A stretch of DNA of 64,000 nt from assembly GCA_035505475.1 (NCBI GenBank), contig DATJQT010000238.1, forward strand, positions 1,755 through 65,754, written 5' to 3'. The translations under genes and the position numbers were made by a program. This document shows positions 31,587 through 64,000 of this stretch, one piece after another (the stretch's first letter is position 1; each line of letters starts with the position of its first letter). Below the pieces are notes generated by a model. That model worked only from the letters and a program-made list of their open reading frames with translations, searched no databases and was not told the DNA's origin. Source of the stretch: Vulcanimicrobiaceae bacterium (GTDB taxonomy: Bacteria; Methylomirabilota; Methylomirabilia; Methylomirabilales; 2-02-FULL-66-22).

Positions 31587-33977
31587 TCAGATTCGATCTG
31601 CACCGAGAGTTGGGGAGGTGGTCGGTGGAAGGTTGCGGTTCAGCGGAATGCCGGCGGCCAAGGCACGGCCGTTCCAGCTTCCGATGATCTCCCCGTTGAC
31701 GGTCAACTGGTACACTCGCTCGGGGGTGGCCTGGCGGAAAACGACGACGGGTCGACGGCGCCAGCGGAACGGGCTGCAGAGGCGGAATCGAATCTGGTCT
31801 TCCTCAACGGCACACTCGGTCAGGTCCAGTCCGTTGACGCCGACGCCGCGCGCCGCGGCCACATCCACGATCGCGTCGCGGAGATACTCCTCCTCGATCT
31901 CGATTCCGGCCATGCCGCTGCCGGTGCCCCAGTGGAAGCTGGTGACCGCGCCCTTGCCGCCGTAGCCGGTGTGGGCCCAGTTCTCGGCCGGGGACACCGG
32001 AAACTGCGCGCGCAGCGCCGCCACGCCCCGTTCGAGGTATTCGATTTCCGCCGTCGCGCGGTAGTAGTCCAGCAGGAGGTTGCCAAAGAAACTCTGCCGC
32101 GCATCGGACCACTCGGCGTCGGAGTTCTGCGTGGTGAATCCGCCGAGCAGGAGCGGTGGGGCGACCTCCGGGTCAAGACCCGGGTGGGTCCAGCATTGCT
32201 GGTAGAGCAGGAGGTAATCCAGGAGGTGGCGGCCCCGGTCCAGCCACGAGCGTTCGCCGGTCACGCGGCCCATGGCCAGGTAGGCGGCCACGGTTTGCCC
32301 GAGCGCGAGGTTGTTCGCCGGCCACTGCGCGGTCCGCGCGTCGAAAACCGGTTCGCGCGGGCTGCAGCTCCAGAAGGTCTCATAATCGTACCACTGGCGC
32401 TGCGGGACCACCGCTTCCTCGAGAAAGGCGAAACCACGCCGGGCCGCCGCGAGCCAGGCGGGATTCGAGTCCTGCGCGTAGAGCTCTAGCAGGAAGAGAA
32501 CCACGGGGCCGGTTTCCGCCTTTGTCGCCACGGCCCGGTCGAGCCGCACGGAACCGTCCTCGTTGAACTGGGTCGGCAGCATGCCATCCGGCATCTGCCT
32601 CGCCACCAGGAACTCTGCGAGCGCCTCGCACCGCGGCACGATGGCCGCAGAGCCCGGCAAGCCGGCGGCCCGCCAGCGCAGCAGCCAATACGCCGTCCAG
32701 CTCATGTCGTAACCGAGGAAACCCTCCTCGGTGCCGGCGCCGCAGCCGTCGCCCGCGGCCCAAAGCGGGTTGGCGCCCTCGCGGCCGGGGGCCGCGATGG
32801 TCTTGAACGCGCCTTCGCGCCCGGGCGCCTGCAGGGCGAGGGCGACGGTCCGGCCGGCGAGTTGCAGCAAGGCGTCATTGCCCTCGCGCCGGGAATGGAG
32901 GGCCATCCCGAATGCCGTCCGCATCGCATTGAACCAGGATGTCAGATAGGCGGCCGGACCCGGGCCCCAGCGGTCCGTGCGCACGGCCCCGCCGGTGGTG
33001 CCGTCGGGCAGGGGTACGTCGAGCCACAATCGGGCGGTCTCTTCGCCCCAGACCACCCGGCGCCAGTCGTCCCACAGCGCCGCGCCCCGATAGCGGGCAT
33101 CCGTGGCCGCCTGTTGGGGCGCGGCGCCGGCCTGTTCGCGGCGCCCGAACCACGCCCAGTGGGCGCGCACCGCCTCGCGGAACGCCGAGCCGGGATCGGC
33201 GTCGGCCGTGACCAGCAGATAGTAGGCGTTGACGAGTTGGGTCGGCAAAGCCCAGGTGCATCCGGTCGCAGGCGCGTAGACCGAATGCGAGGCCAGACGC
33301 GCGGGGACGAACCCGACCGTGAGGAGGGGCCCGGCGGGCACGTCGAGGTCGAGCGTGTGGGGGCAGCGCGCCAGGACGTCCCGCTCCAACCTGGCCAGAT
33401 CGGGGACGATGCCCACGGCGGACCGCCCTGACTGGACGAGCACAAGGGGGGCCTTGTACTGGGCATCCGGATTGAATCCGCCCACCGAGGGCGAAAACGT
33501 CCAATCGGCCGGCGCCAGAAACCGGAATTGGTCGCCGAAGGAGGCGATGCTCACCTCCCGGCCGGGCACCATCCGGGTGACCACGTGGAGCCAGGGTCCG
33601 TCGTCGAGGCATCGCACGGTGCGCGTGATCGCGAGGCCGTCGACGAGAAGCTCCTCGGTCAACGTTCCTCCGGCTACCGACACGCGGCCCACCGTGCCGC
33701 GGAGCAGTTGCCCGCCGGCGCCGGCCACTGCGCACGGGCCGACGCTGCGATCTGCGGAGGAGTCCGCCACGGGCACCCACTTCCCGTCCCGGCGGGCCAG
33801 GTAGCGCTCGCGCAGTTGGCCGGCTTCGACGCGGGCCTCGACGCGAATCCGCGCTCCCTCGAGCACGGCGGTCGATGCGAGCGGCGCCCGCGCGTCGGGG
33901 GATTCGGTGGATGACATGATCCGGGTGGGGCGGGTTCGCGCGGGCTTTTTTGGCGGGAGGCGGTCGGGGCGCGTCAC
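31587..33977 (-). CDS. 796-aa cytoplasmic protein of unknown function, alpha/alpha-toroid-like C-terminal half
   Basis: Uninterrupted ORF. GTG 33977 forms a GTGA overlap with the upstream stop (alternative start ATG 33917). No signal peptide. The C-terminal half has helical-hairpin repeats rich in W/Y/L (WTAYWLLRW..., LLDYLLLYQQCW...), as in six-hairpin glycosidase or lyase folds. Confidence 0.65.
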   Translation of the reverse strand: MTRPDRLPPKKPARTRPTRIMSSTESPDARAPLASTAVLEGARIRVEARVEAGQLRERYLARRDGKWVPVADSSADRSVGPCAVAGAGGQLLRGTVGRVSVAGGTLTEELLVDGLAITRTVRCLDDGPWLHVVTRMVPGREVSIASFGDQFRFLAPADWTFSPSVGGFNPDAQYKAPLVLVQSGRSAVGIVPDLARLERDVLARCPHTLDLDVPAGPLLTVGFVPARLASHSVYAPATGCTWALPTQLVNAYYLLVTADADPGSAFREAVRAHWAWFGRREQAGAAPQQAATDARYRGAALWDDWRRVVWGEETARLWLDVPLPDGTTGGAVRTDRWGPGPAAYLTSWFNAMRTAFGMALHSRREGNDALLQLAGRTVALALQAPGREGAFKTIAAPGREGANPLWAAGDGCGAGTEEGFLGYDMSWTAYWLLRWRAAGLPGSAAIVPRCEALAEFLVARQMPDGMLPTQFNEDGSVRLDRAVATKAETGPVVLFLLELYAQDSNPAWLAAARRGFAFLEEAVVPQRQWYDYETFWSCSPREPVFDARTAQWPANNLALGQTVAAYLAMGRVTGERSWLDRGRHLLDYLLLYQQCWTHPGLDPEVAPPLLLGGFTTQNSDAEWSDARQSFFGNLLLDYYRATAEIEYLERGVAALRAQFPVSPAENWAHTGYGGKGAVTSFHWGTGSGMAGIEIEEEYLRDAIVDVAAARGVGVNGLDLTECAVEEDQIRFRLCSPFRWRRRPVVVFRQATPERVYQLTVNGEIIGSWNGRALAAGIPLNRNLPPTTSPTLGADRI

Positions 33978-35101
33978 CGCGGGGCGTGAGCCGCGTTCCG
34001 GTCGATTCGGGCTTGGAGTTGTGCCGCGTAGAATTGGGGGTCGAGGGGCAGATCCACCGTGCGGTCGAGCCAGGTTGAGAGGAGCATGGCGTTGGCCAGC
34101 TCGACCGCGCCGATCGCCTCCTCGACGGGGGCGAGCACCGGGACGCCGTCGAGGATCGCATCGGTGAAGTTCTGCAGGATGCCGGCGTGCTGCGGATCCG
34201 GGCCGGTCACCGCGAGCGGGACCTCGACCGCGGCCGGCGTGGCAAAGCCCTTGACCGAGGTGCGCGCGAACTCGGTGGTGGAGGTCGCGTTGCGCAGGAA
34301 CTGCAGATGGTGGTCTTCATACAGCAATCGTCCGCCTTCCGCGGCGATCTCGAGGCGGTTGGTGCCGGGAGCCTCGCCGTTGGAGGTGATGAACGTCCCG
34401 GTCGCGCCGCCGTCGAATTCGCAATATGCGGTCACGTCGTCTTCGACCTCGATCGCATGGTGCCGGCCGAAGGCGCAGAAGGCCCGCACGCGGCGGGGCC
34501 GGCCGAACAGCCAGCCGAGCATGTCCAGGCAATGAGAACTCTGGTTGATGAGAACGCCGCCGCCTTCCCCCGCCCACGTGCCCCGCCACGGGGCGGAGGC
34601 ATAGTAGGCGTCGGGGCGGAAGCCGTCGGTCACCGTCCATTGCACGCGCAGCATGCGCCCCAGTTCGCCCGAGCGAATCATGCTGCGGATGGCCTGAAAC
34701 GCCGGGTTCGTGCGCATATTGTAGACCACGCCCAGAACGAGGCGCGGGTCGCGGCCGGCCGCGAGCAGCGGCGCGCAGGCGGCCACGTGGGTCGACAGCG
34801 GCTTCTCCACCAGGACGTGACAGCCCGCGCGCAGGCCGGCGAGGGCCGCGGGCACGTGGGCCGGGTGGGGGAGGGCGATCAACAGGGCGTTGATGGTCCG
34901 TTCGGACAGCATGTCCTCCAGCCGGTCGAAGGTGCGCACCGGGTCCGCATGGGGTGCGAGGCGGGCCCGGTCGGCGTCGCACACCGCGGCGAGTCGCGCC
35001 CGCTTGATCGCGCCCGACGCCAGGAGACGGCAGTGCAGCGCGCCGATGTTTCCCAGCCCCACGACGCCGAAGCGGACCGGAGCGGTGCGGTCCGGCGTCA
35101 C
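33974..35101 (-). CDS. Gfo/Idh/MocA family NAD(P)-dependent oxidoreductase
   Basis: True start taken as GTG 35101 ([20 protein letters not shown]...), in a GTGA overlap with the upstream stop at 35098. Contains the EKP motif (VLVEKPL). The 653-aa ORF-track entry is a chimeric extension across the upstream gene. Confidence 0.85.
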   Translation of the reverse strand: MTPDRTAPVRFGVVGLGNIGALHCRLLASGAIKRARLAAVCDADRARLAPHADPVRTFDRLEDMLSERTINALLIALPHPAHVPAALAGLRAGCHVLVEKPLSTHVAACAPLLAAGRDPRLVLGVVYNMRTNPAFQAIRSMIRSGELGRMLRVQWTVTDGFRPDAYYASAPWRGTWAGEGGGVLINQSSHCLDMLGWLFGRPRRVRAFCAFGRHHAIEVEDDVTAYCEFDGGATGTFITSNGEAPGTNRLEIAAEGGRLLYEDHHLQFLRNATSTTEFARTSVKGFATPAAVEVPLAVTGPDPQHAGILQNFTDAILDGVPVLAPVEEAIGAVELANAMLLSTWLDRTVDLPLDPQFYAAQLQARIDRNAAHAPR

Positions 35102-36255
35102 CGGCGGGGGAATTTCAGCCACCGGGCCCCGAGTTGCGACGAGCGCACGGCGGTCTCGATGAAGGCCAGGCCCTCCACGCCGTCGTCGATCGTCGGATAG
35201 TCCAGGCCCGCGGGCGGGCGCCGCCCCTCCACCTCGGCGCTGATGGCGCGAAAGGCCTCCTGGTAGATGTTGGCGAACGCCTCGAGGTACCCTTCGGGGT
35301 GACCGAACGGAATCCGGGTGAAATGGGCCGCGGTCCGGCCGACGTAGCTGTTGCCCCGGCGCCAAACCTGGGCGGGCGCGTCGGGAAATTTCAGGACCAA
35401 CTCGTTCGGCTGCTCCTGGTACCACTCCAGGGCGGCCTTCGTACCGTAGACGCGGATATTCAGGTTGTTCTCCTCGCCGACGCAGATCTGCGAGCAGTGC
35501 AGGACGCCCTTGGCGCCGCCGGCGTAGTGCAGGAGGATGTTGCCGTCGTCGTCGAGGCGGCGCCCGGGCACGAACGTGGTCAGGTCGGCGCTCAGTTCCG
35601 CGATGCGCAGGCCGGTGACGTAGCGCGCCAGGTTTTCCGCATGGGTGCCGATGTCGCCCAGGCACCCGGCCGCGCCGCTGCGGCGCGGATCCGTCCGCCA
35701 GGCGGCCTGTTTCTGCCCCGTGGCCTCGAGGCGGGTGCTGAGCCAGCCCTGGGAGTACTCCACCACGACCTTGCGGATCGTGCCCAGGCGGCCCGCGCGC
35801 ACGAAATCCCGCGCCTGCTTCACCATCGCGTTGCCGGTGTAATTGTGCGTGAGCACGAATACCTTCCCGGTCCGGCGGACGATCGCCCGCAGGCGCCGGG
35901 CCTCGGCCAGGGTCAGGGTGGCCGGCTTGTCGCACACGACGTTGAAGCCGGCCGCAAGGAACCGGCTGGCGACGGGGAAATGCTGGTGATTCGGCGTCAC
36001 GATGACGACGAAGTCGAGGCGGCGATCGGCCGGGAGCCGTGACTCGGCCCGCGCCATCTCCTCGTAGGAGCCGTAAGTCCGGGCGGGGTCGACAAGGAGG
36101 TCGCGGCCCGACGCGCGCGCGCGCGCGGGATCCGAGGAGAAGGCGCCGGCGGCCAGCGTGGCCCGGCCGTCCATGATCGCCGCGATCCGGTGGACGGCGC
36201 CGATGAAGGCGCCCCGCCCGCCGCCGATCATGCCATAGCGGAGTTTCCTGTTCAT
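35098..36255 (-). CDS. Gfo/Idh/MocA family oxidoreductase
   Basis: Contains [19 protein letters not shown] and NVVCDKP (an EKP-like motif). 385 aa. Confidence 0.85.
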
Positions 36256-36294: not shown

Positions 36295-37335
36295 TCAGGC
36301 TTTCCGCTCAAACGCCGCATCGAACGCGACCGCGCCCGGAGGGAAGTCGGCGCGGCGCACGAAGGCGGCGGCCTCGGTGGCGCCGTGGATTCGGTCCATG
36401 CGGATGTCCTCCCACTCGACGGAGAGGGGGCCGGCGTAGTGGACGTCGTTCAGGGCGACGATGATCGCCTCAAAGTCGATGTCGCCGCGACCCGGTGAAC
36501 GAAAGTCCCAATACCGCCGGGCGTCGCCAAAGCTCGCGTGGCCGCCGAAGACGCCGACCGAGCCGTCCCCGTGGCCCCACCACGCATCTTTCATATGCAC
36601 ATGATAGATGCGGCGGCCGAGGACGCGGATGAACTTGACGTAGTCGACGCCTTGGTAGCCGAGATGCGACGGGTCGAAGTTGAAGCCGAAGCGCCGGTGC
36701 TGCTTGACCGCCTCCACCGCCCGCTGGGCGCTGGCGAGATCGAAGGCGATCTCCGTGGGATGCACCTCGAGCGCGAAGTTGACGTCGGCCTGGTCGAAAG
36801 CCTCCAGGATCGGCATCCAGCGCGTCGCAAAGTCCTGAAAGCCCTGGTCCCAGAATTCCTGGGTCGTGGGGGGAAAGGCGTAGAGCGAATGCCAGATCGA
36901 CGACCCGGTGAAGCCGTTGACCACCGGGGGAAATTCGCTGGCGCCGCGCCCGCGCGGCCGGGCGTCGAAGAATTTCCGGGCCGCCCGGGCCGTCAGGACC
37001 ATCCGCTCGGCCGCGCGGCGGCGGACGCCCTCCGCCTCGCCGTCGCCCCAGATCTCGGGCGGGAGGATGGCCCGGTGGCGCTCGTCGATCCGGTCGCAGA
37101 CGGCCTGGCCGACGAGGTGACTCGAGATCGCGAAGCAGGTGAGGCCGTGCTCGGCGAGCAGCGCCCACAGGTCCCGGACGTAGCGCGGGGAGGCGGCGGC
37201 CTGGACGACATCGAAGTGGTCGCCCCAGCAGGCGAGCTCGACGCCGTCATAGCCCATTTTCTTGACCAGGGGCAGCAGCTCGCGGAGAGGCAGGTCGGCC
37301 CACTGGCCGGTGAACAAGGTGACGGGGCGTGGCAT
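36295..37335 (-). CDS. xylose-isomerase-like TIM-barrel protein (sugar phosphate isomerase/epimerase family)
   Basis: Contains [27 protein letters not shown] and HVHMKDAWW, typical of AP_endonuc_2/IolE-like TIM barrels. 346 aa. Confidence 0.85.
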
Positions 37336-38407: not shown

Positions 38408-40063
38408 TCACTTCATGCCGGTAAATGTGATGCCCTCGATGAAATAGCGCTGGGCGAACAAGAAGAGGACGATCACGGGTAGTGTCATGAGTAGTGAGCC
38501 GGCCATCATGATGGTCGTCGTGCCGCCCGACTGGACGTTCAGGGCGTAGAGGCCGAAGGACAGCGGGTACAGGCGCTGGTCGGAGACAAAGAGCAGGGGT
38601 CCGGTGAAATCGTTCCAGGCGCCAATGAAGGTGAAGATCGCGATGGCGGCGAGGCTGGGCCGGATCAGGGGCAGAACGACGTGCCAGTAGATCTGCCAGT
38701 AGCTGCAACCGTCGATGCGCGCGGCGTCCTCGAGGTCGCGCGGCAGGCCGCGCAGAAACTGGTGGAGCAGGAAGACGAAGAAGGCGTTGGCCAGGAGGCT
38801 GCCGGTCCAGAGCGGGTACAGGGTGTTGTACCAGCCGAGCGCGCGCATGATCAGGAAATGGGGGATCATCGTCACCTGGCTGGGGACCACCATGGTGGCG
38901 ATCATGAGCAGGAAGCACAGGCGCCGGCCCGGCCAGCGCAGACGCGCGAAGCTGTAGGCGACCAGCGAGCAGCTGAACAGGGTCCCGACCAGCTGGAGAA
39001 TGACGAGGAAGACGCTCGTGGCGACGTAGCGCCAGAACGGGATGTAGTTCAGGGTCTGCTGGTAGTTCTGGGTGATCTTCTCCCACCAGGCGCGCAGCCA
39101 GCCGCTGCGGACGATCTCCAGCGTGATTCTGATCTGATGCGGGTCGGTGGCAAATTGCGGGCCGTGCGCCACCTCGCGCCACAGGATCCAGGTGCGGAGC
39201 TGATTGGACTGGTCGTCGGCGCTGGGGCGTTGCCAGGTGGCCTCGGACCAGTTGTCGTCCGCAAGCGTGATCGGCCGCTCCGCGCGATACTGGCGGCCGT
39301 CCATCTCCACGGTGGCATAAAGGCGGTTCCATGAGGCGTCGGCGCGCAGAAAGACCTGGAGGCGCCGGAGGCGGGAGACCGGAAAGGTGGTGGTGAAGGT
39401 CCGGGTTAGCTGCACCCGGTCGCCGGAGGAGAAGTCGTATTGCAATCGGCCGGCGGGCAGGCCGGGCAGCGGGGCGGTGAAACGGGCGGCGGCCGGTCCG
39501 CCGATCTGCCAGGTGCCGGCCTCGCGGTCGGGCGGCGCCAGCACGTCCTGCGTCAGGTCATCCGCGGTGGCGGTGAGATTGCCGAGGAGCAACGAGCGCT
39601 CGACCTGCGCCTGGGTTTCGGCGACTTCGCGGTCGCCGATGAGGCGCGGGAGCGAGGCGGCCAGCGCCGCGGGCGCTTGCCGCCACCAGGCGGCCGGCTG
39701 GCTGAGGCGGAGGTGCTGGAAGAGGCCGCGCGCCACGGCGACGGTCATCTGGTCGGGGTCGACCGCGGCCGGCCAGGCGGTGGGCGCGGCGCGCAACTGG
39801 CGTTCGATCGCGGCCAGCACGGCGCGGCCCGACGCGGTGGCGGGGCCGGCGAAGCGGCTGCCGTCGACGTAGGGCGACTGGCGGCGCGGCCGGGGCGCCG
39901 CGGGGAGGACCCCGGCGGCGGGATTGGAGAATTCCCGCTCGGTCTTGATCGACGCCAGCAGCATCCAGGCGAGGGGCCAGGCAAAGACGATCGCGCCGGC
40001 CGTCAGCAGGAGGTAAAGCAGGCCGCGGTGGGCCCAGCGGGCGATCTGGTCAGTCGCCCTCAT
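38408..40063 (-). CDS. CUT1-type carbohydrate ABC transporter permease (MalG-like) with ~295-aa periplasmic insertion
   Basis: The C-terminal roughly 215 aa is a canonical permease core with an EAA loop (LEDAARIDGCSYWQIYWHVVLPLIRP). An N-terminal TM (LLYLLLTAGAIVFAWPLAWMLL) is followed by a long non-hydrophobic segment before TM2. Confidence 0.85.
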   Translation of the reverse strand: MRATDQIARWAHRGLLYLLLTAGAIVFAWPLAWMLLASIKTEREFSNPAAGVLPAAPRPRRQSPYVDGSRFAGPATASGRAVLAAIERQLRAAPTAWPAAVDPDQMTVAVARGLFQHLRLSQPAAWWRQAPAALAASLPRLIGDREVAETQAQVERSLLLGNLTATADDLTQDVLAPPDREAGTWQIGGPAAARFTAPLPGLPAGRLQYDFSSGDRVQLTRTFTTTFPVSRLRRLQVFLRADASWNRLYATVEMDGRQYRAERPITLADDNWSEATWQRPSADDQSNQLRTWILWREVAHGPQFATDPHQIRITLEIVRSGWLRAWWEKITQNYQQTLNYIPFWRYVATSVFLVILQLVGTLFSCSLVAYSFARLRWPGRRLCFLLMIATMVVPSQVTMIPHFLIMRALGWYNTLYPLWTGSLLANAFFVFLLHQFLRGLPRDLEDAARIDGCSYWQIYWHVVLPLIRPSLAAIAIFTFIGAWNDFTGPLLFVSDQRLYPLSFGLYALNVQSGGTTTIMMAGSLLMTLPVIVLFLFAQRYFIEGITFTGMK

Positions 40064-53036: not shown

Positions 53037-54176
53037 ATGACTCCCGCGTCGCCCACCGTCCGGGTCGGAATCATCGGCGGCGGCCTGATGGGCCGCGAAG
53101 TGGCGAGCGCCTTCGGGCGCTGGTTCGCCCTCGAGGATGTGCCCGTGCGCGCGGAGCTGACCGCGGTGTGTGATTTGCAGCCCGCCACGCTCGAATGGTT
53201 CCGCCGCGTGCCCTCCGTCCGCCTGCTCACGACCGACCACCGGGAGCTGCTGGCCGCGCCCGAGGTGGAGGTGGTCTATGTCGCGGTGCCGCACCACCGG
53301 CACGAGGAAATCTATCTCGACGTCCTGCGCGCCGGCCGGGACCTGTTCGCGGAGAAGCCGTTCGGCCTCGACCTGGGCGCGGCCCGGCGCGTGCGGGACG
53401 AGGCGCGACGCCTGGGCCGCTTCGTGCGGGTCTCGTCGGAATTTCCCTTTGTGCCCGGGGCGCAACGGGCGTTCCAGCGGGTGGCGCAGGGCGGGCTGGG
53501 GCGCCTGCTCACGGCGCGCTGCGCCTTTCTCCACTCCAGCGATCTCGATCCCCTGAAGCCCATCAACTGGAAGCGCCAGGTCCAATTCTGCGGCGAGGCC
53601 GGAGTCATGGCGGACCTTGGTCTGCACGTCGCCCATCTGCCCCTGCGCCTCGGATGGCGGCCCGAGGCGCTGTTCGCCGTGCTGCAGAAGGTCTACGCGA
53701 CCCGGCCCGATGGCCGGGGCGGATCCGCGCCCTGCGACACTTGGGACAACGCGACGCTGCATTGCCGGGTGGCGCTCGGTGACCAGACGCTGCCGCTGAC
53801 GCTCGAGATGAAACGGATGGCGCCGACCGAGACCAACACCTGGATTTTCGAGGTACTCGGGACCGACGGCGGCGTGCGCTACTCCACCAAGGAGCCGAAG
53901 ACGTTCTGGACGTACCGGCGGGGCGAGGAGCAGGTCTGGAGCAAGGTCGACCTGGGATTCGCCACGCCGTTCAAGACCATCACGGGGGCCATCTTCGAGC
54001 CGGGGTTCCCGGACGTGATCATGCAGATGTGGGCGGCCTATCTCGCCGAGCGCGCCGGGCGGCTGGGGGAGCGGTTCGGCTGCGCCACGCCGGACGAGGC
54101 GGTGGCCAGCCAGGAGCTGTGGGCCGCGGCCTTGGAGTCGCACCGGCGCCAAACCGTGGTGTCTTTGCCGCGATGA
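53037..54176 (+). CDS. Gfo/Idh/MocA family oxidoreductase
   Basis: Contains VRVGIIGGGLMGREV and DLFAEKPFGL. 379 aa. Confidence 0.85.
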   Translation: MTPASPTVRVGIIGGGLMGREVASAFGRWFALEDVPVRAELTAVCDLQPATLEWFRRVPSVRLLTTDHRELLAAPEVEVVYVAVPHHRHEEIYLDVLRAGRDLFAEKPFGLDLGAARRVRDEARRLGRFVRVSSEFPFVPGAQRAFQRVAQGGLGRLLTARCAFLHSSDLDPLKPINWKRQVQFCGEAGVMADLGLHVAHLPLRLGWRPEALFAVLQKVYATRPDGRGGSAPCDTWDNATLHCRVALGDQTLPLTLEMKRMAPTETNTWIFEVLGTDGGVRYSTKEPKTFWTYRRGEEQVWSKVDLGFATPFKTITGAIFEPGFPDVIMQMWAAYLAERAGRLGERFGCATPDEAVASQELWAAALESHRRQTVVSLPR

Positions 54177-55330
54177 CATCCGCCGGGTCCCGCCTGCGGA
54201 GCATCCATGGGGCGCCGTCGTGGCGCCTGGCCAGCGACCGGGTGGAGGCCTTTGTCGCCCGCGACGGCGGCCATCTCGGGCCGGTCACCTTTCGCACCGC
54301 GCGGGGACGGGTCCGGCCCCTGGCGGTCGCGCCGTGGGCGGGCGGGCGCCTGGCGCCGGCCACGCCGGCGGTGTTGCGGACGCTGCGCGGCGATTTCTTC
54401 TGCCTGCCGTTCGGCGAAAATGGGCGGCCGTGGCGCGGCGAGCGCCATCCGGTCCACGGCGAAACGGCGTCGCGCCGCTGGCGCCTGCTGTCGTCGACCG
54501 AGCGCGGGCCGGTCGCCGAGCTGGCGGCGGAGATGGTCACGCGGATCCGTCCCGGCCGCGTCCGCAAGCTGCTGCGCGTGCGCCAGGGCGAGACCAATGT
54601 CTACTGCCGCCACGAGCTGCGCGGCTTCCGGGGCCGGCTGTGCCTTGGCCACCACGCGATGCTGGCGTTTCCCGACGAGCCGGGCGCCGGCCGCATCGCC
54701 CTGAGTCCGTGGCGCCTGGGCCAGGTCTGCCCGCGCCCGTTCGAATCCGCCGCCCAGGGGGGCTACTCGGCGCTCCGGACTGGAGCGCGTTTTCGCGACC
54801 TGCGGCGCGTGCCCCTGGCCGCCGGTGGCTGGGCGGACCTCACCCGCTATCCGGCCCGCGCCGGCTTCGAAGACCTCGTCCTGGTGTCGGCCCGGCCGCG
54901 GACCCGGCTGGCATGGACGACGGTGACGTTTCCGCGCCAGGGCTACGTGTGGATCGCGCTCAAGGACCCGCGGGTGCTCGCCTCGACGGTCCTCTGGCAT
55001 TCGAACGGCGGCCGGCATTATCCGCCTTGGAACGGGCGCCATCGGCGGGTGCTCGGCCTGGAGGAGGTCACGGGCTATTTCCATTTCGGGCTCGCCGATT
55101 CCGCCGGCCCGAACCCGCTGGCGCGGCGGGGCGTGCCGACGACCGTGCGGCTGCGCCCGGACCGGACCACGGTGGTCAATTATGTCATGGGAGTGGCAGC
55201 GGTTCCGCCGGACTTCGACTGCGTCCGCCAGGTGCGCTTCGCGCGGGACCATGTGGTCCTGACGGCCGGGTCCGGCGCCGTCGTCCGGCATCCCGTGGAC
55301 CTTTCATTCTTCGACCCGGCCGCGCAATGA
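54173..55330 (+). CDS. 385-aa cytoplasmic protein of unknown function (beta-rich, possibly mutarotase-like)
   Basis: ATG 54173 lies in an ATGA overlap with the upstream stop (MTSAGSRLRSIHGAPSWRL...). It has ATGA overlaps at both ends, so it is embedded in the operon. HG-containing segments (RHPVHGE, LCLGHHAML) weakly recall aldose-1-epimerase-like folds. The functional call is speculative. Confidence 0.55.
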   Translation: MTSAGSRLRSIHGAPSWRLASDRVEAFVARDGGHLGPVTFRTARGRVRPLAVAPWAGGRLAPATPAVLRTLRGDFFCLPFGENGRPWRGERHPVHGETASRRWRLLSSTERGPVAELAAEMVTRIRPGRVRKLLRVRQGETNVYCRHELRGFRGRLCLGHHAMLAFPDEPGAGRIALSPWRLGQVCPRPFESAAQGGYSALRTGARFRDLRRVPLAAGGWADLTRYPARAGFEDLVLVSARPRTRLAWTTVTFPRQGYVWIALKDPRVLASTVLWHSNGGRHYPPWNGRHRRVLGLEEVTGYFHFGLADSAGPNPLARRGVPTTVRLRPDRTTVVNYVMGVAAVPPDFDCVRQVRFARDHVVLTAGSGAVVRHPVDLSFFDPAAQ

Positions 55331-55899
55331 AGTGCTCCGAGATCAACCGCGCCTACGACGACGCCTGCGCCTGTTTCCGCCGGCATGCCTGGGCCCTGCC
55401 GCCGCGGCCGCGGTGGGACATCACGGACTTCGGCCTGGGGAATTTTGCGCATTTTGGCCTCACGCTGGTCAACCTCGCGACCGAGCCGGAGTATTGCGAG
55501 AAGCTGATGTATGCCCGCCGCCGCCAGACGACGCCCTGCCACACCCACGTCCGGAAGAAGGAGGACATCATCTGCCGCGTGGGGGAGCTGACGCTGCGCC
55601 TGTGGCCGGCGCGGCCGGTGGCCGGCGCCGGACCGGGTCCGGCCTTCGTGGTGCCGGTCAACGGCAGCGGCGAATCCATCGTGGCCGGGGGGGAGCTGAC
55701 GCTGGCGGCGGGAAGCCGGGTGACGCTGGTCCCCGGCGTCTGGCATGAATTCTGGGCCCGCACCGCCGAGTGCATCATCGGTGAGGTGAGCACGGCCAAC
55801 GACGACCTGCACGACAACTGCTTCCTTGACCCGGGCATCGGGCGGTTTCCGGGGCTCGAGGAGGACGAACCCCTGCGGGTGGCGCTGGAGCGGCGATGA
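55327..55899 (+). CDS. cupin-type sugar isomerase, D-lyxose/D-mannose ketol-isomerase-like
   Basis: ATG 55327 (ATGA overlap). Contains YCEKLMYARRRQTTPCHTHVRKKEDIICRVG and VWHEFWA (cupin metal ligands), then EVSTANDD. About 190 aa. Confidence 0.75.
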   Translation: MKCSEINRAYDDACACFRRHAWALPPRPRWDITDFGLGNFAHFGLTLVNLATEPEYCEKLMYARRRQTTPCHTHVRKKEDIICRVGELTLRLWPARPVAGAGPGPAFVVPVNGSGESIVAGGELTLAAGSRVTLVPGVWHEFWARTAECIIGEVSTANDDLHDNCFLDPGIGRFPGLEEDEPLRVALERR

Positions 55900-56981
55900 G
55901 CGCCCACCGGCCATCGCGGCCGCGCCGGGGCATCCTGGCCGGCGGCAATTGGATCGTCGACCACGTGAAGGTCATCGACACGTGGCCGCCGCAGGACGCG
56001 CTCGCGTCCATCCTCGGGCAGACGGCCAGCAATGGCGGCGCGCCCTACAATGTGCTGAAGGACCTGGCGCGCCTCGGCGCCCCCTTTCCGCTGGCGGGCG
56101 TCGGGCTGGTGGGGCGCGACGTCGACGGCCGCGCCATCCGCGCCGACTGCGCCGCCTGCGGCATCGACGTGCGCCGGCTCCGGATGACCCGGCTCGCCGC
56201 GACGTCCTCCACCGACGTCATGACCGTGCAGTCCACCGGGCGGCGGACCTTTTTTCACCAGCGCGGGGCGAACGCCCTGCTCGATGCGGGCGATTTCGAT
56301 TTCGCCGCGAGCCGCGCCCGGATCTTCCACCTCGGCTATCTGCTGCTGCTGGACCGTCTCGATGGCGCCGACCGCGGCCGGCCGCGCGTCTGCCGCGTGC
56401 TGGCGGCGGCGCGGCGCCAGGGATTGAAAACCTCGATCGACGTGGTCAGCGAGGATTCCCGCCGCTATCGGCGGGTGGTGCTGCCGGCGCTGCCGTTCGT
56501 CGACTATTGCTTCGCCAACGACTTCGAGGCGGAGCGGCTGACCGGCGTCCGTCTGCGCTCGCGCCGCGGCATCGTTGCGGCCGCCGCGGAACGGGCGGCG
56601 CGGCGCCTGCTGGCGGCCGGGGTGAGGGAGTGGGTCTTCATCCATTTCGCCGAGGCGGTGCTGGCGGCGCACGCCGGCGGCGGCTGCTGGTGGCAGCCGA
56701 GCGTGCGGGTGCGGCCGGCCGACATCCGCGGGGCCGCGGGGGCGGGGGACGCCCTGGCGGCGGGAATTCTGTTCGGCCTGCACGAAGGCTGGCCCATCCC
56801 CCGGTGCCTCCGCCTGGGCGTCGCGGCGGCGGCGGCATCGCTGTCCCATCCGACCTGTTCGGAGGGCGTGGGGACGGCGGCGGCGTGCCTCGCGCAGGCC
56901 GGCAGGCGGGGGTTTCGGCGCCTCCCCGGCATGAACCGGCGGGTCGCCGGCGCCCGGCGACGATTCGCCCCGGCGCCATGA
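55896..56981 (+). CDS. PfkB family carbohydrate kinase
   Basis: ATG 55896 (ATGA overlap). N-terminal ILAGGNWIVDHV. C-terminal nucleotide/anion-hole motif GAAGAGDALAAGILFGL. Confidence 0.8.
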   Translation: MSAHRPSRPRRGILAGGNWIVDHVKVIDTWPPQDALASILGQTASNGGAPYNVLKDLARLGAPFPLAGVGLVGRDVDGRAIRADCAACGIDVRRLRMTRLAATSSTDVMTVQSTGRRTFFHQRGANALLDAGDFDFAASRARIFHLGYLLLLDRLDGADRGRPRVCRVLAAARRQGLKTSIDVVSEDSRRYRRVVLPALPFVDYCFANDFEAERLTGVRLRSRRGIVAAAAERAARRLLAAGVREWVFIHFAEAVLAAHAGGGCWWQPSVRVRPADIRGAAGAGDALAAGILFGLHEGWPIPRCLRLGVAAAAASLSHPTCSEGVGTAAACLAQAGRRGFRRLPGMNRRVAGARRRFAPAP

Positions 56982-59065
56982 ATCCCCCCTCGCCTCAACG
57001 GGTGAATCCTGCCGAGCGGCCCCGCCGCCGGGCGTCCCTTCCGGCGGCCTTTCCCCTGCGCCAGGTGCACCTGGATTTCCACACCTCGCCTTTCATTCCG
57101 GACGTCGGCGCCGAGTTCGACGGACGGAAGTTCGCGCGGACGCTGCGCCAGGCCCACGTCAACAGCGTCACGGTCTTCGCCAAATGCCTGCACGGGATGT
57201 GCTATTTTCCCACCCGGGTGGGCACGCCGCACCCGGCCCTGCGGGGCCGCGACCTGCTGGGCGAGATGCTCGAGGCCCTGCGGCGCGAGGACATCCGGGC
57301 GCCGGTCTACATCGCCGTCGGCTGGGAGGAGGATGCCGCCTCGCGCCATCCGGAGTGGCGGCAGATGCGGGCGGACGGTTCGTTCGCGCGCGCGACGCTC
57401 GCGGGCGCGGTGCAGGCGGACGGCTGGCAGTTTCTCGACTGGGTCAACCCGGACTACCAGGACCACGTTGAGGCGCTGACCCGCGAGGTCGTGGCGCGCT
57501 ACGGCGGGGTGGACGGTTTCTTCTATGACATCCTGTTCTACGCCCGGCAGGCCCATGGTTCGGCGGCCGCGTGGCGGTTCCGCCGGCGCCGCGCGCTGAC
57601 GGCCGACGGCGACGAAACCTTCGCCCGCTTCGAGGGGGCGGCCCAGGCGGCGTTCAGCGCGCGGTTCACGAAACTGCTCCGCGGCCTGCAGCCGGGCGGC
57701 CGGGTCTTCTACAATGCGACGGGCGAGATCTCGATGGACGCGGCGGTGGGGGTGCGCGCGCGGTACGCGCTCATGACCCACATGGAGATCGAGTCGCTGC
57801 CGTCGGGCTTCTGGGGCTACCACCATTTTCCGCGCTTGGCGCGCAGCTGCGGCCGCTGGGGGCGGCCCTGGCTCGGCATGACCGGGCGCTTCCAGAAGGA
57901 GTGGGGCGATTTTGGCGGCATCAAGCCCGCGGCCGCGCTCGAGTATGACTGTTTTCGCGCGCAGGCGCTGGGCGGGGGCAACTCGATCGGCGACCAGCTG
58001 CCGCCGCGCGGCACGCCGGACCCGGCGGCCTATGCCCTCATCGGCCGTGTGTACGCGCAATGCGCGGCCGCCGAGCCATATTACGCCCGCAGCGCCCCGC
58101 TGCCGCGGGTGGGGGTGTTCACCGCCCATTACCCCGGACGGGATCCGCACCGCGCCAATCTCGCGGACGAAGGCGCGCTGCTGATGTGCGACGAGATCCA
58201 CGAGGACGCGTCGCTCCTCGACGAACAGGCGTCGCTGGACGGATTCGCCGTGCTGGTGCTCCCCGACGCGGCCGTGGTCACCGACCGGCTCCGGGCGAAG
58301 CTGCGCGCCTTCCACCGGCGGGGCGGGCGCCTGATCGTGTCGCATCGCGCCGGCTGCGATGCCGCCGGGCGGTGGGCCCTGGATTTTCTGCCGCTGCGCT
58401 TCGCGGGCGAGGTCGAGAAATATCCGGCCTATTGGCGGACGCGCCGGGGCTTCGCCCCCGGGCTGGCCGGGAGCGACCGCGTCATTTACTCCCGCGGGCT
58501 GAATGTGGTCCCCGGGCGCGGCGCCCAGGTGCTGGTGGACCGCGTGCTGCCGTACTTCCGGCGGACTGCGCTGACCTACTGCTCGCACGCCCAAACGCCG
58601 CCCGTGGCGAAACCGGACCGGTTTCCGGCGGTGGTCGCCGGCCGGCGTTTCGTCTATTTTGCGGACCCGATCTTTAGCGAGTACCGCGAGAGCGGCAACG
58701 TCGTGACCCGCGAAGTCTGGCGGCGGGCGATGGAACGCCTCGCCGGCCCGCCGCCGTTCGGTGCCGGCCTGCCGACCACGATCCTGTGCGTGCCGCGGCG
58801 GCGGGGGCGCGACCTGCTGCTCACCCTGCTGCACTATGTGCCGGTGCGGAAGGCGCTCGAACGGGATGTGCTGGAGGAAGCGATGGGCTTTGCCGGCGAG
58901 ATTCTGCGCCTGCCACCGGGGGCGGCCACGGTGCGCGTATTTGGCACCGGGCAGTCGCTCGAACCAGCGGGACGGGGCGGGTTCTTGCTGCCCGTCGCCA
59001 AGGGTCGCCTGTTGCTCGAGGTGCCCGGATATTTTCGCCGCCCGGCCCGGGGGAGGTCCCGATGA
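56978..59065 (+). CDS. cytoplasmic GHL6/GH42-like putative glycosidase (TIM barrel + trimerisation-like domain)
   Basis: True start is ATG 56978 (ATGA overlap), in-frame inside the 1079-aa ORF-track entry. The pattern LRQVHLDFHTSPFIPDVGAEFDGRKFARTLRQAHVNSVTVFAKCLHGMCYFPT matches my recollection of the 'hypothetical glycosyl hydrolase 6' N-domain. No signal peptide. Confidence 0.65.
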   Translation: MNPPSPQRVNPAERPRRRASLPAAFPLRQVHLDFHTSPFIPDVGAEFDGRKFARTLRQAHVNSVTVFAKCLHGMCYFPTRVGTPHPALRGRDLLGEMLEALRREDIRAPVYIAVGWEEDAASRHPEWRQMRADGSFARATLAGAVQADGWQFLDWVNPDYQDHVEALTREVVARYGGVDGFFYDILFYARQAHGSAAAWRFRRRRALTADGDETFARFEGAAQAAFSARFTKLLRGLQPGGRVFYNATGEISMDAAVGVRARYALMTHMEIESLPSGFWGYHHFPRLARSCGRWGRPWLGMTGRFQKEWGDFGGIKPAAALEYDCFRAQALGGGNSIGDQLPPRGTPDPAAYALIGRVYAQCAAAEPYYARSAPLPRVGVFTAHYPGRDPHRANLADEGALLMCDEIHEDASLLDEQASLDGFAVLVLPDAAVVTDRLRAKLRAFHRRGGRLIVSHRAGCDAAGRWALDFLPLRFAGEVEKYPAYWRTRRGFAPGLAGSDRVIYSRGLNVVPGRGAQVLVDRVLPYFRRTALTYCSHAQTPPVAKPDRFPAVVAGRRFVYFADPIFSEYRESGNVVTREVWRRAMERLAGPPPFGAGLPTTILCVPRRRGRDLLLTLLHYVPVRKALERDVLEEAMGFAGEILRLPPGAATVRVFGTGQSLEPAGRGGFLLPVAKGRLLLEVPGYFRRPARGRSR

Positions 59066-60123
59066 AGGCGCGAACCCCGGCCGACGCCGTGGCGCTGGGA
59101 ATCATCGGCGCGGGGCAGGTCGTGCGCCACCAGCTGGAGGCTCTGGCGGCCGCCCCCGCGGTGCGGGTGGTGGCGGTGACGGACCTCGATGGCCGGGCGG
59201 CGCGTGAGATCGCCGGTGCGCTGGGCGCCGCCGACGTCGTGGCCGATTATCAATCCCTGCTGCGGCACCCGGCGGTCGAGGCGGTGTATGTGGCGACGCC
59301 GCCGCGGCTGCACCGGCCCATGATCCTCGAGGCGATCGCCGCGGAGCGTCATGTCCTTTGTGAGAAGCCGTTTGTGCTCAACGCCGCGGAGGCCCGCGAG
59401 GTGGCCGCGGCCGCGGCGCGCCGCCCGGCGCTGATCGTGGCGAGCTGCTCCAGCCGCATGCATTTTGGCGCGGCGGTGCAGTCGGCGCATGCGCTCATCG
59501 CCCGCGGCGGGTTGGGGCGGCTGCTGGGCGTGCGCCACCTGGTGACCTGCTGGCCGCGACCGCCCCGGCCCCCGGGGTGGAAAACCAACCGGGCCGAGGC
59601 CGGCGGCGGCGCGGCCATGGACTGGGGCGTCTACCATTTCGAGTTCCTGCGGCGGTTGTTGGGGGACGCCTGGGATCCGGTGAGCGTCGCCGCGACGACC
59701 GAGGCCGAGTGGGGCGACGGTCCGGGGCTGGAATCGGGGTTCTCGGCGACCGTCGTCTGCCGGTCGGGGCTGCGCGTCCAGGTCGAGCGGCGGTGCGAGA
59801 TCGGGCCGCTGCTCGAGCGGACCGAAGTGCGGGGAACGGAGGGAGGCCTCGATGTACCGATGCTCGGCGGTGCCATCCCGGAGACGCTGACCCGGCATTG
59901 CCGCGCGGAAGACGGCCGCGTGCGAACCGAGTCCGGGCTCACGGAGCCCGTCAAGGACCACCGCCCCATGCTGCTCTTCCCGCTGCTCGACTTTGCCGCG
60001 GCGGTGCGCGGACGCGCGCCAGCCGCGACTTCGCCGGCGTCCGAGCTCGGGTTGCACCTGCTGCTGGACGCGCTTTATGTCTCCGCGGCACGGGGCGGGA
60101 TCCCCGTCGATCTGCCGGTATGA
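59062..60123 (+). CDS. Gfo/Idh/MocA family oxidoreductase
   Basis: ATG 59062 (ATGA overlap). Contains VALGIIGAGQVVRHQ and HVLCEKPFVL. Confidence 0.8.
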   Translation: MKARTPADAVALGIIGAGQVVRHQLEALAAAPAVRVVAVTDLDGRAAREIAGALGAADVVADYQSLLRHPAVEAVYVATPPRLHRPMILEAIAAERHVLCEKPFVLNAAEAREVAAAAARRPALIVASCSSRMHFGAAVQSAHALIARGGLGRLLGVRHLVTCWPRPPRPPGWKTNRAEAGGGAAMDWGVYHFEFLRRLLGDAWDPVSVAATTEAEWGDGPGLESGFSATVVCRSGLRVQVERRCEIGPLLERTEVRGTEGGLDVPMLGGAIPETLTRHCRAEDGRVRTESGLTEPVKDHRPMLLFPLLDFAAAVRGRAPAATSPASELGLHLLLDALYVSAARGGIPVDLPV

Positions 60124-62105: not shown

Positions 62106-62123
62106 CGCGCCCGCCGGCGGGGC

Positions 62124-63272
62124 TCAGGTCAGGGGCGGGACATCGACCCACGTGCGCCGGGCGGAGGACTCCAGCCCCTTTTCGGCGAGCTGCACTCCCT
62201 TGGCGCCCTCCAGCAGCGTCCAGCGGAACGGCTCGTGGGCGACGACATGGCGCAGGAAGAGCTCCCACTGCACCTTGAAGGCGTTGTCGAAGGTCGTGGT
62301 GTCGGGCACCTTTTGCCAGCCGTCGAAGAACTTGATCGGCTGCTCGATGTCGGGATTCCACACGGCCCGCGGCGTGACTTCCGCCCGCTGCGTCCAGCAG
62401 TCGCGCAGCCCGGCCACGGCGGAGCCCTGGGTGCCGTCCACCTGCAGGGTGAGGAGGTCGTCGCGGCGCACGCGCACGCACCAGGAGCTGTTGAAGTGCA
62501 GGATCACGCCCTGGTCGGTCTCGAAGGTGGCATAGGCGGCGTCGTCGGCCGTGCAGGCGTAGGGGCGGCCCTGCTCGTCGCGCCGCTCGGGAATGTGGGT
62601 GACGCACCGGCAGGACACGGCCGTGACGTTGCCGAAGAGATTGTCGATGACGTACCGCCAGTGGCAGAGCATGTCGATCGCCATGCCCCCGCCGTCCTCC
62701 TTGCGGTAGTTCCACGACGGCCGCTGCGCGGGCTGCCGGTCGCCCTCGAAGACCCAGTAGCCGAATTCGCCGCGGACGGAGAGGATCCGGCCAAAGAAGC
62801 CGGAGTCGATCAGCAGCTTCAGCTTGCGCAGGCCGGGCAGCCAGAGCTTGTCCTGCACGACGCCGTTCTTCAGGCCGGCGTCGCGGCACTCGCGGGCGAG
62901 CGCCAGCGCGGTCGCCGTGTCCACCGCGATGGGCTTCTCGCAGTAGATCGCCTTGCGGGCGGCGATCGCCTGGCGGACGCCGTCGGCCCGGCGGTCCGTC
63001 GTCTGGGCGTCGAAATAGATCTGGTTGGCCGGGTCGGCCAGGGCGCTGGAGAGATCGGTCGTGAACCGGGCGACGTCGTGGGCCCGGGCGAGGGCCTCGA
63101 GCTTGTCCGCGTTGCGGCCGACCAAAATCGGGTCCGGGAGGATGACATCACCGTTGGCCAGGCGCACGCCGCCCTGCTGGCGGATGGCGAGGATGGAGCG
63201 GATCAGGTGCTGATTCGTCCCCATTCGGCCGGTGACGCCGTTCATGATGATGCCGATGGAGTGATGTTTCAT
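62124..63272 (-). CDS. Gfo/Idh/MocA family oxidoreductase
   Basis: Start chosen at ATG 63272 ([18 protein letters not shown]...). Contains IYCEKPIAV. The longer 492-aa ORF-track start runs through the upstream gene. Confidence 0.85.
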
Positions 63273-63306
63273 GGAGTGCGGGGAGCCGGCGGTTCCGGGT
63301 CCGGGG

Positions 63307-64000
63307 TCAGACGTGGGCGCGGTAGGCCGCGACGATTTCCTGGAGGAATTTCGTCTGGTCGGTGGCCCAGAGGCGGGTGGAGAAGATCTCGACTTCGTGG
63401 AAGCCGCGGAAACCGGCGGCGTCCACCCACCCGCGGATCTGGCGGATGGGGATGCAGCCTTCGCCCATGAGCCCCCGGTCGTTGAGGAGGTCGATGGTCG
63501 GGGTGCGCCAGTCGCAGACGTGAAAGGCGAAGAGTTTGTCATCCCGGCCGCAGGCCTTGATCTCAGCCTCGAGGTTTTCGTCCCACCAGACGTGGTAGAC
63601 ATCGATGGCGACTCCGAGGGCGGGGGACCGCAGCGCCTGGCAGACGGCTCGCGCTTGCGCGACGGTGTTCACGGCCGAGCGTTCGTCCGCGTACATGGGA
63701 TGCAGCGGCTCGAGGGCCAGCTTGACGCCGGCCTTCTCGGCGTGCGGCAGCACCGCCGCCAGACCCTCGGTGATCTGGCGCCGGGATTCGGCCAGCGGCT
63801 GGCCGGGGACCGCGCCGGCGACCATCACGATGTGCGGGGCCCCGAGGGCCGCCGCTTCGTCGATGCAGCGGCGGTTCTCATCGAGCGCGCGGGCGCGGCC
63901 GGCCGCCGTCGCCGCGGGGAAGAACCCGCCGCGGCACAGGGAGACCACGGTCAGGCCGTGTTCGCGGATCAGCCGGCCGACGGCGCGGACGTCCCGCCCC
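63307..64000 (-). CDS. xylose-isomerase-like TIM-barrel protein (5' end beyond window)
   Basis: The frame stays open to nt 64000 (...[26 protein letters not shown]...). Contains [20 protein letters not shown] and FHVCDW motifs. Confidence 0.8.

Follow-up and report, generated by a model that had tools for sequence, protein, structure and literature searches.

A putative composite locus for cytoplasmic glycan utilisation, dense in Gfo/Idh/MocA oxidoreductases and TIM barrels, with Opitutaceae-like relatives

Eight Gfo/Idh/MocA oxidoreductase (GFO) genes and four genes for xylose-isomerase-like TIM barrels lie within 32.4 kb of a contig labelled as Vulcanimicrobiaceae bacterium (DATJQT010000238.1, assembly GCA_035505475.1). 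Which sugar pathway could be served by so many enzymes of these two classes? The stretch analysed here, referred to as the window, comprises 64,000 nucleotides (positions 1,755 to 65,754 of the contig), and the locus occupies its right half (31587-64000). A sequence-only reading had proposed that an imported glycoside or cyclitol is oxidised to a keto intermediate, cleaved or dehydrated by TIM-barrel lyases and re-reduced. As checks, it had suggested assigning the paralogues with hidden Markov models, folding the unknown proteins and searching other genomes for the same gene order.

This work tentatively answers the question with a composite, cytoplasm-centred glycan or oligosaccharide utilisation locus, under the control of a single divergent AraC region, in an uncultured soil bacterium of Opitutaceae-like (Verrucomicrobiota-type) affinity. 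The sequence-only reading had seen no classical secreted glycosidase and had left three large proteins as unknowns. These three are a homologue of the α-L-fucosidases of glycoside hydrolase (GH) family 151, a protein modelled with the toroid fold of polysaccharide lyases (PL) and epimerases, and a probable (α/α)6-barrel protein. Absent from its count were also a DeoC/LacD class I aldolase, a PfkB kinase, a MalK ATPase, a mutarotase-fold gene and a D-lyxose-isomerase-type gene. A conventional mutarotase-isomerase-kinase-aldolase trunk sits in the middle of the plus-strand operon and speaks against a purely oxidative locus.

Genes were mapped from open reading frames (ORFs), third-position guanine-cytosine (GC) content and frame plots, and were then compared with the gene calls on independent near-identical contigs. 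Families were assigned with Pfam at gathering scores and with NCBIfam equivalog models at their own cutoffs. Negative Pfam results refer to the genes scanned by Pfam.

Gene content and divergent layout

The genes of the locus, in window coordinates, are the following (ABC, ATP-binding cassette; aa, amino acids; nt, nucleotides; AF2, AlphaFold2).

31587-33977, minus: unk796, last gene of the minus array; conserved family of 776-796 aa
33974-35101, minus: GFO1; PF22725 100 bits, PF01408 67 bits; best NCBIfam match IolG, 101 bits against a cutoff of 355
35098-36255, minus: GFO2; by Pfam
36295-37335, minus: TIM1, xylose-isomerase-like; PF01261 120 bits
37385-38293, minus: TIM2, orphan subfamily; PF01261 104 bits; 302 aa on an independent contig
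38408-40063, minus: ABC permease, 551 aa; BPD_transp_1 on residues 368-539 only
40050-42587, minus: fused solute-binding protein and ABC permease, 845 aa in one ORF; SBP_bac_1 96-383, BPD_transp_1 633-838
42695-43519, minus: AraC-family regulator; HTH_18 and HTH_AraC; 274 aa in L071
43818-45998, plus: TonB-dependent receptor; Plug domain
46144-46875, plus: ThuA-domain protein; PF06283 96 bits
46879-47916, plus: GFO3, beginning 3 nt after the ThuA gene; PF01408 62 bits
47982-49085, plus: GFO4; PF01408 and PF22725; conserved in L065 and L066
49134-51128, plus: unk664, apparently cytoplasmic; by AF2 model and Foldseek
51125-52174, plus: GFO5, DgpA-like candidate glycoside C3-oxidoreductase; by PDB sequence match to DgpA1/DgpA
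52200-53030, plus: class I aldolase, DeoC/LacD, DhnA type; PF01791 123 bits; PRK07226 131 bits, under its cutoff
53037-54176, plus: GFO6, cassette oxidoreductase; by Pfam
54173-55330, plus: unk385, predicted mutarotase (aldose-1-epimerase) fold; by frame analysis, AF2 and Foldseek
55327-55899, plus: D-lyxose/D-mannose-isomerase-family cupin (LyxI); PF07385 E 9e-45; LyManIsomGneg 118 bits against a cutoff of 350
55896-56981, plus: PfkB-family sugar kinase; PF00294 100 bits; no NCBIfam equivalog reached
56978-59065, plus: GH151-family homologue (Pfam GHL6); PF14871 98 bits; no signal peptide
59062-60123, plus: GFO7, 4-nt overlap with both neighbours; PF01408 86 bits
60120-60956, plus: TIM3, orphan subfamily; PF01261 56 bits
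60975-62105, plus: MalK-type ABC ATPase; ABC_tran, OB_MalK, TOBE_2
62124-63272, minus: GFO8, last gene of a separate minus-strand operon; by Pfam
63307-64000, minus: TIM4, cut by the window end; PF01261 148 bits; 282 aa in full (L161)

The core counts of the sequence-only reading hold. All eight GFOs match PF01408 and/or PF22725 above the gathering scores, all four TIM barrels match PF01261 (the start of TIM2 being backed by the gene calls of the independent contig), and the ThuA-domain gene lies 3 nt upstream of a GFO gene. The GFO density is unusual as well, at about seven times that of related-lineage loci (0.035 per kb over 942 kb; 1.1 genes expected in 32.4 kb, Poisson P ~2.5e-5), a ratio and a P value that are rough because the background loci were chosen by the presence of one gene.

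The AraC gene heads a minus-strand array of eight co-directional genes and diverges from the TonB-dependent receptor gene, with which a plus-strand array of 15 co-directional genes begins that runs to the MalK gene with gaps of at most 145 nt. Spacing in the minus array is similar. The plus array contains eight 4-nt overlaps, of which seven follow one another between GFO6 and TIM3, and the start of GFO5 overlaps the stop of unk664 by 4 nt. Frame analysis separated 54220-55899 into two genes in different frames (54173-55330, 385 aa, and 55327-55899, 190 aa), each with 4-nt overlap with its neighbours. The proposed arrangement of two divergent operons around an AraC regulator thus stands for the AraC/receptor divergence but not for GFO8 and TIM4. 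These form the tail of a third, minus-strand operon that reads short-chain dehydrogenase/reductase (SDR), 458-aa protein, TIM4 and GFO8 on a near-identical contig (L161), and a second AraC regulator (cupin plus helix-turn-helix) diverges from this operon beyond the right end of the window. L161 13188-17116 covers about 0-3.3 kb past that end and carries the rest of TIM4, the 458-aa protein, the SDR and the AraC gene. The 458-aa protein adjoins the SDR and shows a weak, sub-threshold GH88 hint (E 0.001).

Uptake genes stand on both sides, as had been claimed, with the TonB-dependent receptor on the plus strand and CUT1-type ABC genes on the minus strand. The receptor homologue in L065 also has a TonB_dep_Rec β-barrel domain, and an N-terminus resembling a signal peptide can be seen when the receptor ORF is extended to a trial start at 43701, upstream of the 43818 call. 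Despite this receptor, no SusD-like gene was present among the scanned genes, and the SusC/SusD pair of a Bacteroidota-type polysaccharide utilisation locus is not seen. The MalK-type ATPase is presumed to be the partner of the opposite-strand permeases. Because it lies in the plus array and its permeases in the minus array, the divergent operons probably work together. The importer is unusually built: a membrane-anchored solute-binding domain is fused to one permease, and the second permease is long, both features being conserved in relatives. The fusion is also found in L065 and L160, and the 551-aa permease has an extra N-terminal region of ~330-360 aa ahead of its core, with a continuous coding signal over the gene. 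No signal peptide was visible on any enzyme when N-termini were judged by eye, without a predictor, in line with the sequence-only reading.

Hydrolase, lyase-fold and redox proteins

The protein encoded at 56978-59065 matches PDB entry 6tvk with an E value of 3.3e-87 and is colinear with it over ~610 residues (27-638 aligned to 32-635). Entry 6TVK is ALfuk2, a GH151 α-L-fucosidase of Paenibacillus thiaminolyticus, in which D154, E235 and H503 are the nucleophile, the acid/base and the complementing histidine, respectively (PMC10154630). As in ALfuk2, a TIM barrel is followed by a Rossmann-like domain. This similarity, across both the catalytic and accessory domains, assigns the protein to the glycoside hydrolases. 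In the public annotation it is an "alpha-amylase family protein", and three proteins of the locus are "hypothetical". Because characterised GH151 enzymes act only on small fucosides (PMC10154630), its natural substrate is uncertain.

No Pfam, NCBIfam or PDB sequence match was obtained for unk664. Its AF2 model (39 homologues, pLDDT 92) shows an N-terminal α/α toroid and a C-terminal β-sandwich, and Foldseek relates it to 6hzn, 4fnv, 3a0o, 4ojz and 2x03 with E values of 4e-9 to 1e-6, a probability of 1.0 and an identity of ~10%. Dermatan-sulfate epimerase 1, heparinase III, PL15 and PL17 alginate lyases and chondroitin AC lyase are among the matched folds. From this model, unk664 is predicted to have the toroid plus β-sandwich architecture of polysaccharide lyases (PL8, PL12, PL15, PL17, PL21 and PL33) and epimerases. 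The family comprises 1,656 clusters at 50% identity. H130 is nearly invariant and Y185, 55 residues further on, is invariant; as a candidate catalytic pair, these two residues have a spacing that resembles the His/Tyr spacing of lyases.

For unk796 itself, neither Pfam nor NCBIfam gave a match and a profile search yielded no PDB sequence relative; PDB sequence and profile searches with unk664, unk385 and unk796 gave nothing usable. However, 26 of 30 family members weakly match PF06662 (C5-epim_C; best E 1.6e-6), and unk796 is a probable (α/α)6-barrel protein by this sequence evidence. Its homologues number more than 280. Identity is 55-70% for the best 120 listed, and the small number that carry a name come from metagenome-assembled genomes of Planctomycetota and Acidobacteriota. 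A 70% relative (L078) is likewise preceded by GFO genes. A mutual relationship of unk664 and unk796 was rejected (hhalign probability 0.15%).

Within the redox set, GFO5 is the clearest relative of a glycoside-oxidising enzyme, with full-length alignments to DgpA1 (9m3d, 184 bits) and DgpA (7xr9, 173 bits). The nearest structures of GFO2 are uncharacterised oxidoreductases (3v5n at 418 bits, 7d5m and 3dty at ~265 bits), ahead of levoglucosan dehydrogenase (6a3f, 92 bits). The best PDB matches of GFO6 are LgdA (80 bits) and a scyllo-inositol/L-glucose dehydrogenase (76 bits). Both GFO2 and GFO6 are thus remote from the characterised enzymes. The seven GFOs besides GFO5 are candidate 3-keto-sugar reductases. 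On the TIM-barrel side, TIM1 matches the 2-hydroxy-3-keto-glucal hydratase of Agrobacterium (8ro4) over residues 23-329 with 122 bits and an E value of 1.9e-34, which makes it, by homology only, a putative keto-glycal hydratase. A literature search by name for keto-glucal hydratase found no paper. TIM2 and TIM3 gave nothing at E < 1e-3 against PDB sequences, and TIM3 has no NCBIfam match. Because neither has a solved relative, a candidate eliminase among them has no homology support. The eight GFOs are mutually only 23-38% identical and the four TIM barrels barely align with one another, so both sets represent distinct subfamilies and not recent duplicates; recent tandem amplification of the GFOs is ruled out by the same identities.

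No GFO or TIM paralogue reached an NCBIfam equivalog cutoff in the assignment with hidden Markov models. The best scores in the locus were as follows.

IolG: 102 bits, cutoff 355
Levoglucosan dehydrogenase (LevoglcsnDh): 101.6 bits, cutoff 650
BT_2158 / BT_2159: 20-49 bits, cutoffs 650-750
IolE: 46 bits, cutoff 290
IolC (IolC_N): 62 bits, cutoff 300

In addition, IolD, IolB and IolA had no match among the scanned genes. The outcome that the sequence-only reading had set against itself, with all paralogues inside inositol clades, is thus not observed, and no inositol equivalog is found. The cyclitol that it had considered as a substrate loses its support in turn, as IolG, IolE and IolC stay far under their cutoffs. 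The inositol pathway is excluded by these scores, and the levoglucosan pathway by those of the LgdA equivalog (101.6 against 650 bits) and of PDB entry 6a3f (at most 92 bits).

A five-gene cassette (aldolase-GFO6-unk385-LyxI-PfkB) lies at the centre of the plus array. The AF2 model of unk385 (pLDDT 87) matches 3mwx, 3nre and 4bze in Foldseek with E values of ~1e-12 and target TM-scores of 0.69-0.72, predicting a galactose-mutarotase fold. Its family, with more than 2,600 relatives that are mostly Opitutaceae among those with a source name, has invariant His, Asp and Glu positions. The block is found intact in 11 of 80 metagenome loci and also in L159, a 273-kb contig whose PfkB counterpart is typed as ketohexokinase-like (PF25270). 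GFO6 is 64-72% identical to the cassette copies in distant metagenome loci and 84-99% identical to those in the two closest (L079 and L080). A partial version (DeoR-unk385-DUF6786-LyxI-PfkB) is present in a strain in culture, Opitutaceae TAV5, where it lies near a heparinase II/III gene. No publication describing the cassette was found by searching for lyxose isomerase, PfkB and aldolase; searches with 'Gfo Idh MocA' were uninformative.

Conservation, known systems and provenance

The gene order is carried by two independent assemblies that are >99.5% identical (L071, L160). In other genomes, the core order from the ABC and AraC genes through PfkB is mostly kept at 69-79% identity (L065, L066), with L066, a 12.9-kb contig, showing only the part from GFO3 to the GH151 gene. 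In the 69% relative L065, GFO3 is absent with a 29-aa ORF left at 8745-8846 while ThuA is kept, and an unrelated 467-aa protein (17900-19303) takes the place of the GH151 gene. A pair of the GFO8/TIM4 type occurs in Cohnella fermenti (L011) at 66% and 48% identity.

A general linkage of unk664 with GFOs is unsupported: once the close relatives and a Cohnella/Paenibacillus group are set aside, a GFO gene adjoins the homologue in only a few of 64 genome loci. In that group, an unk664 homologue lies inside an ABC/GFO/TIM cluster (Paenibacillus pasadenensis L013 1582-16800, also L010, L016 and L021). The cluster contains a ROK regulator, a TIM barrel, a GFO, a fusion of GntR with a solute-binding protein, an ABC system, the unk664 homologue, a GFO, an 884-aa protein and a further GFO. 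The toroid family thus occurs together with GFO and TIM genes a second time, independently of the present locus.

The chemistry considered here has precedents. In A. tumefaciens, the hydratase shares its operon with a β-eliminase for 3-keto-glycosides and a Gfo reductase (GlycDH-OGE-HYD-Gfo; PMC10628242). The levoglucosan pathway consists of four enzymes for oxidation, elimination, hydration and reduction (PMC7676230). The same logic is followed by BT2156-2160 of Bacteroides thetaiotaomicron and AL1-4 of Alistipes, whose enzymes mostly reside in the periplasm, carry signal peptides and bind nicotinamide adenine dinucleotide (NAD) tightly (bioRxiv 10.1101/2024.03.25.586180). As in these BT, AL and A. 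tumefaciens clusters, which have no Koshland-type glycosidases for the reaction concerned, GFOs lie beside sugar-phosphate-isomerase/xylose-isomerase-like TIM barrels, and the sequence of TIM1 is homologous to that of the A. tumefaciens hydratase (8ro4, E 2e-34). Unlike the BT and AL enzymes, those of the present locus appear cytoplasmic. In a further difference from these clusters, no DUF1080 protein was found among the genes scanned by Pfam, nor was an OGE-like eliminase found. Where those clusters have one or two GFOs, eight are present here, together with the GH151 homologue, the toroid proteins and the isomerase-kinase-aldolase trunk.

With the Dgp system for C-glycoside deglycosylation (gut bacterium PUE), the locus shares the full-length DgpA/DgpA1 match of GFO5, but no DgpB/C-type (PuCGE-like) TIM-barrel eliminase was detectable in the PDB searches with TIM1-3. 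ThuA and ThuB account for 3-keto-trehalose formation in Sinorhizobium and Agrobacterium. As in that system, a ThuA-domain gene is directly followed by a GFO gene near a CUT1-type ABC system; here, however, ThuA lies inside a 15-gene array and GFO3 is missing in the 69% relative that keeps ThuA. The levoglucosan pathway shares the chemical logic and LgdA is among the top characterised matches of GFO2 and GFO6, yet at 80-92 bits only, and no GFO of the locus belongs to the levoglucosan dehydrogenase family.

Trunks of mutarotase, isomerase, kinase and aldolase are known for 6-deoxyhexoses from L-fucose (FucUIKA), L-rhamnose (RhaMABD) and sulfo-EMP (YihRSVT) catabolism. The cassette shares their four-step logic, and its PfkB kinase and DeoC/LacD class I aldolase are as in sulfo-EMP. 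Its isomerase is a lyxose-isomerase-type cupin and not FucI, RhaA or YihS. It further differs in that its mutarotase-fold protein has no sequence match to solved mutarotases and in that a GFO is integral to it. By the curated criteria tested, the locus is placed outside the BT2156-60, Lgd, Dgp, iol and ThuAB families. The proposed chemistry is already known, and the locus would be a cytoplasmic, much larger variant with added glycosidase and lyase folds and an undescribed cassette.

GC content steps from ~60% in the left half of the window to ~70% in the right half at 30.8-31.0 kb, and position 31,422 of the window is where an independent assembly of 66 kb and 99.55% identity stops. The NCBI label of the contig (68,340 nt; proteins HTX53600-53624) is Candidatus Baltobacteraceae, the same taxon as Vulcanimicrobiaceae. 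This label conflicts with the closest named relatives of unk664 and unk385, which belong to Opitutaceae and Chthoniobacterales. The GC step and the assembly end at ~30800-31450 could stem from a chimeric join, from erroneous binning or from the edge of an island. For these reasons, both the join of the window halves and the taxon label for the locus are putative. A tRNA scan for an island boundary found none in the window. The GC transition zone holds a gene of the 4-oxalocrotonate tautomerase family (30987-31193, minus strand, 69 aa, PF01361 E 2e-13). The left half (1-31000) is also carbohydrate-related; three of its proteins (549-830 aa) have no Pfam match, and it includes the following genes.

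11118-12833, minus: sulfatase
20513-22423: NagB-like/PIG-L deacetylase fusion
22445-24424: SSF symporter
26741-29110: DUF5107 protein
29548-30810: GntR+Peripla_BP_3 regulator

Proposed mechanism and alternative readings

The mechanism proposed for the composite locus is predicted, in all its catalytic activities, in the succession of its reactions and in its substrate, from the observed gene content, folds, homologies, gene order and conservation. An oligosaccharide would cross the outer membrane by the TonB-dependent receptor and the inner membrane by the CUT1-type ABC importer. Cytoplasmic breakdown by the GH151-like, lyase/epimerase toroid-fold and (α/α)6-type proteins would run in parallel with an NAD-dependent keto-sugar route. 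In the latter, a sugar hydroxyl would be oxidised by the DgpA-like GFO5 and the ThuA-GFO pair, elimination and hydration would fall to the TIM barrels (TIM1 as a relative of the keto-glucal hydratase, and the orphan barrels included), and the remaining GFOs would re-reduce the product. One released aldose would pass through the mutarotase-fold protein, the LyxI cupin, the ketohexokinase-like PfkB kinase, the class I aldolase and GFO6 to dihydroxyacetone phosphate and an aldehyde. The GH151 match hints at a fucose-like sugar, whereas lyxose-isomerase-type cupins prefer the lyxo/manno configuration. Because these two hints conflict, no substrate is named.

Several observations weigh against this mechanism. 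GFO5 and TIM1 lie in different operons and are both far under the curated equivalog cutoffs, and the best PDB match of TIM1 is a protein of unknown function (2zds, 357 bits), with the hydratase at only 122 bits. No eliminase homologue was found in the PDB searches with TIM1, TIM2 and TIM3, in which TIM2 and TIM3 had no match and TIM1 matched only 2zds and 8ro4. The activities of the locus proteins are all predicted, and the GH151-like and lyase-fold proteins are placed by similarity or fold. Because the 69% relative L065 lacks both GFO3 and the GH151 gene, these are accessory and not essential parts. Homologues of unk664 at up to 58% identity mostly occur in unrelated contexts, where their neighbours are glycan genes of other kinds, for example GH42, β-helix proteins and GntR/LacI-type regulators. 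Finally, the cassette stands alone elsewhere, and the locus may serve more than one substrate.

The last point leads to the alternative that survives best, although we consider it rather unlikely: a sugar island in which independent modules for different substrates stand side by side and the number of GFO and TIM genes reflects family expansion in the lineage. The modules would be the ABC/TIM/GFO/unk796 operon, ThuA-GFO-unk664-GFO5, the aldolase-to-kinase cassette, GH151-GFO7-TIM3 and the GFO8-TIM4 operon. The occurrence of the cassette alone in many other contexts agrees with this, as do the separate operon and AraC regulator of GFO8/TIM4, the coming and going of GFO3 and GH151 among relatives, the varied contexts of unk664 homologues and the deep divergence of all paralogues. 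On the other hand, seven consecutive 4-nt overlaps tie the cassette to GH151, GFO7 and TIM3, the importer ATPase ends the same array, the whole order is kept at 69-79% identity, and the GFO density is ~7x the background of related loci.

Catabolism of a uronic-acid-containing glycan appears less probable still. In this case, unk664 would be a cytoplasmic exo-lyase like the PL15/PL17 oligo-alginate lyases, and the cupin isomerase, GFOs, PfkB kinase and class I aldolase would replace KduI, KduD, KdgK and KdgA on the unsaturated product. The fold of unk664 is indeed that of PL8, PL12, PL15, PL17 and PL33 lyases and of dermatan-sulfate epimerase, members of the unk796 family show weak similarity to the C-terminal domain of glucuronyl C5-epimerase, the sub-threshold GH88 hint (E 0.001) lies in the 458-aa protein beside the SDR just past the window, and the TAV5 cassette is near a heparinase II/III gene. 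However, KduI, KdgF, an Eda-type aldolase, GH88 and GH105 had no match among the genes scanned in the window, and the isomerase clearly belongs to the lyxose-isomerase family (E 9e-45). Furthermore, a mutarotase speaks for a free aldose, with its anomeric centre, as the substrate rather than a linear keto-deoxy acid, and unk664, only ~10% identical to any lyase, is a lyase candidate by its fold.

The lyase-like fold also allows a bolder extension of the composite reading, in our view doubtful to a slightly greater degree than the uronate route. Here, unk664 and possibly unk796 would carry out β-elimination or epimerisation of neutral sugars that neighbouring GFOs have activated to a keto or aldehydo form. 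This would make them a new class of redox-primed lyases, with the cassette as an undescribed pathway for the released monosaccharide.

The oxidise-cleave-re-reduce route of the sequence-only reading is kept in part, through the DgpA and hydratase homologues (GFO5, TIM1) and the ThuA-GFO pair, and is weakened by the missing eliminase and the conventional enzymes. In its strict form, with oxidation, TIM-barrel elimination or dehydration and re-reduction of a glycoside or cyclitol but no hydrolase- or lyase-type enzymes, we regard it as the least probable explanation: the same GFO5, TIM1 and ThuA-GFO homologies and the lack of a visible signal peptide on any enzyme fit it, but the operons hold the GH151 homologue together with a lyase-fold and an (α/α)6 protein, no inositol-pathway equivalog is reached (IolG at most 102/355, IolE 46/290, IolC 62/300 bits; no IolD, IolB or IolA match) and no eliminase homologue was found.

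Under the composite reading, the locus is a good experimental lead, with nothing surprising in principle for a Verrucomicrobia-type genome. The understanding of glycoside cleavage by oxidation and elimination dates only from ~2020 onwards and comes from gut Bacteroides, Agrobacterium, Bacillus and Arthrobacter. At stake is how far it reaches into soil Verrucomicrobia-type bacteria, where GFO, TIM-barrel and ThuA genes are very numerous. The locus would offer DgpA-like and hydratase-like enzymes in a cytoplasmic form, in two divergent operons of one locus, and with unk664 and unk796 it presents two sizeable unannotated families with predicted glycan-enzyme folds.

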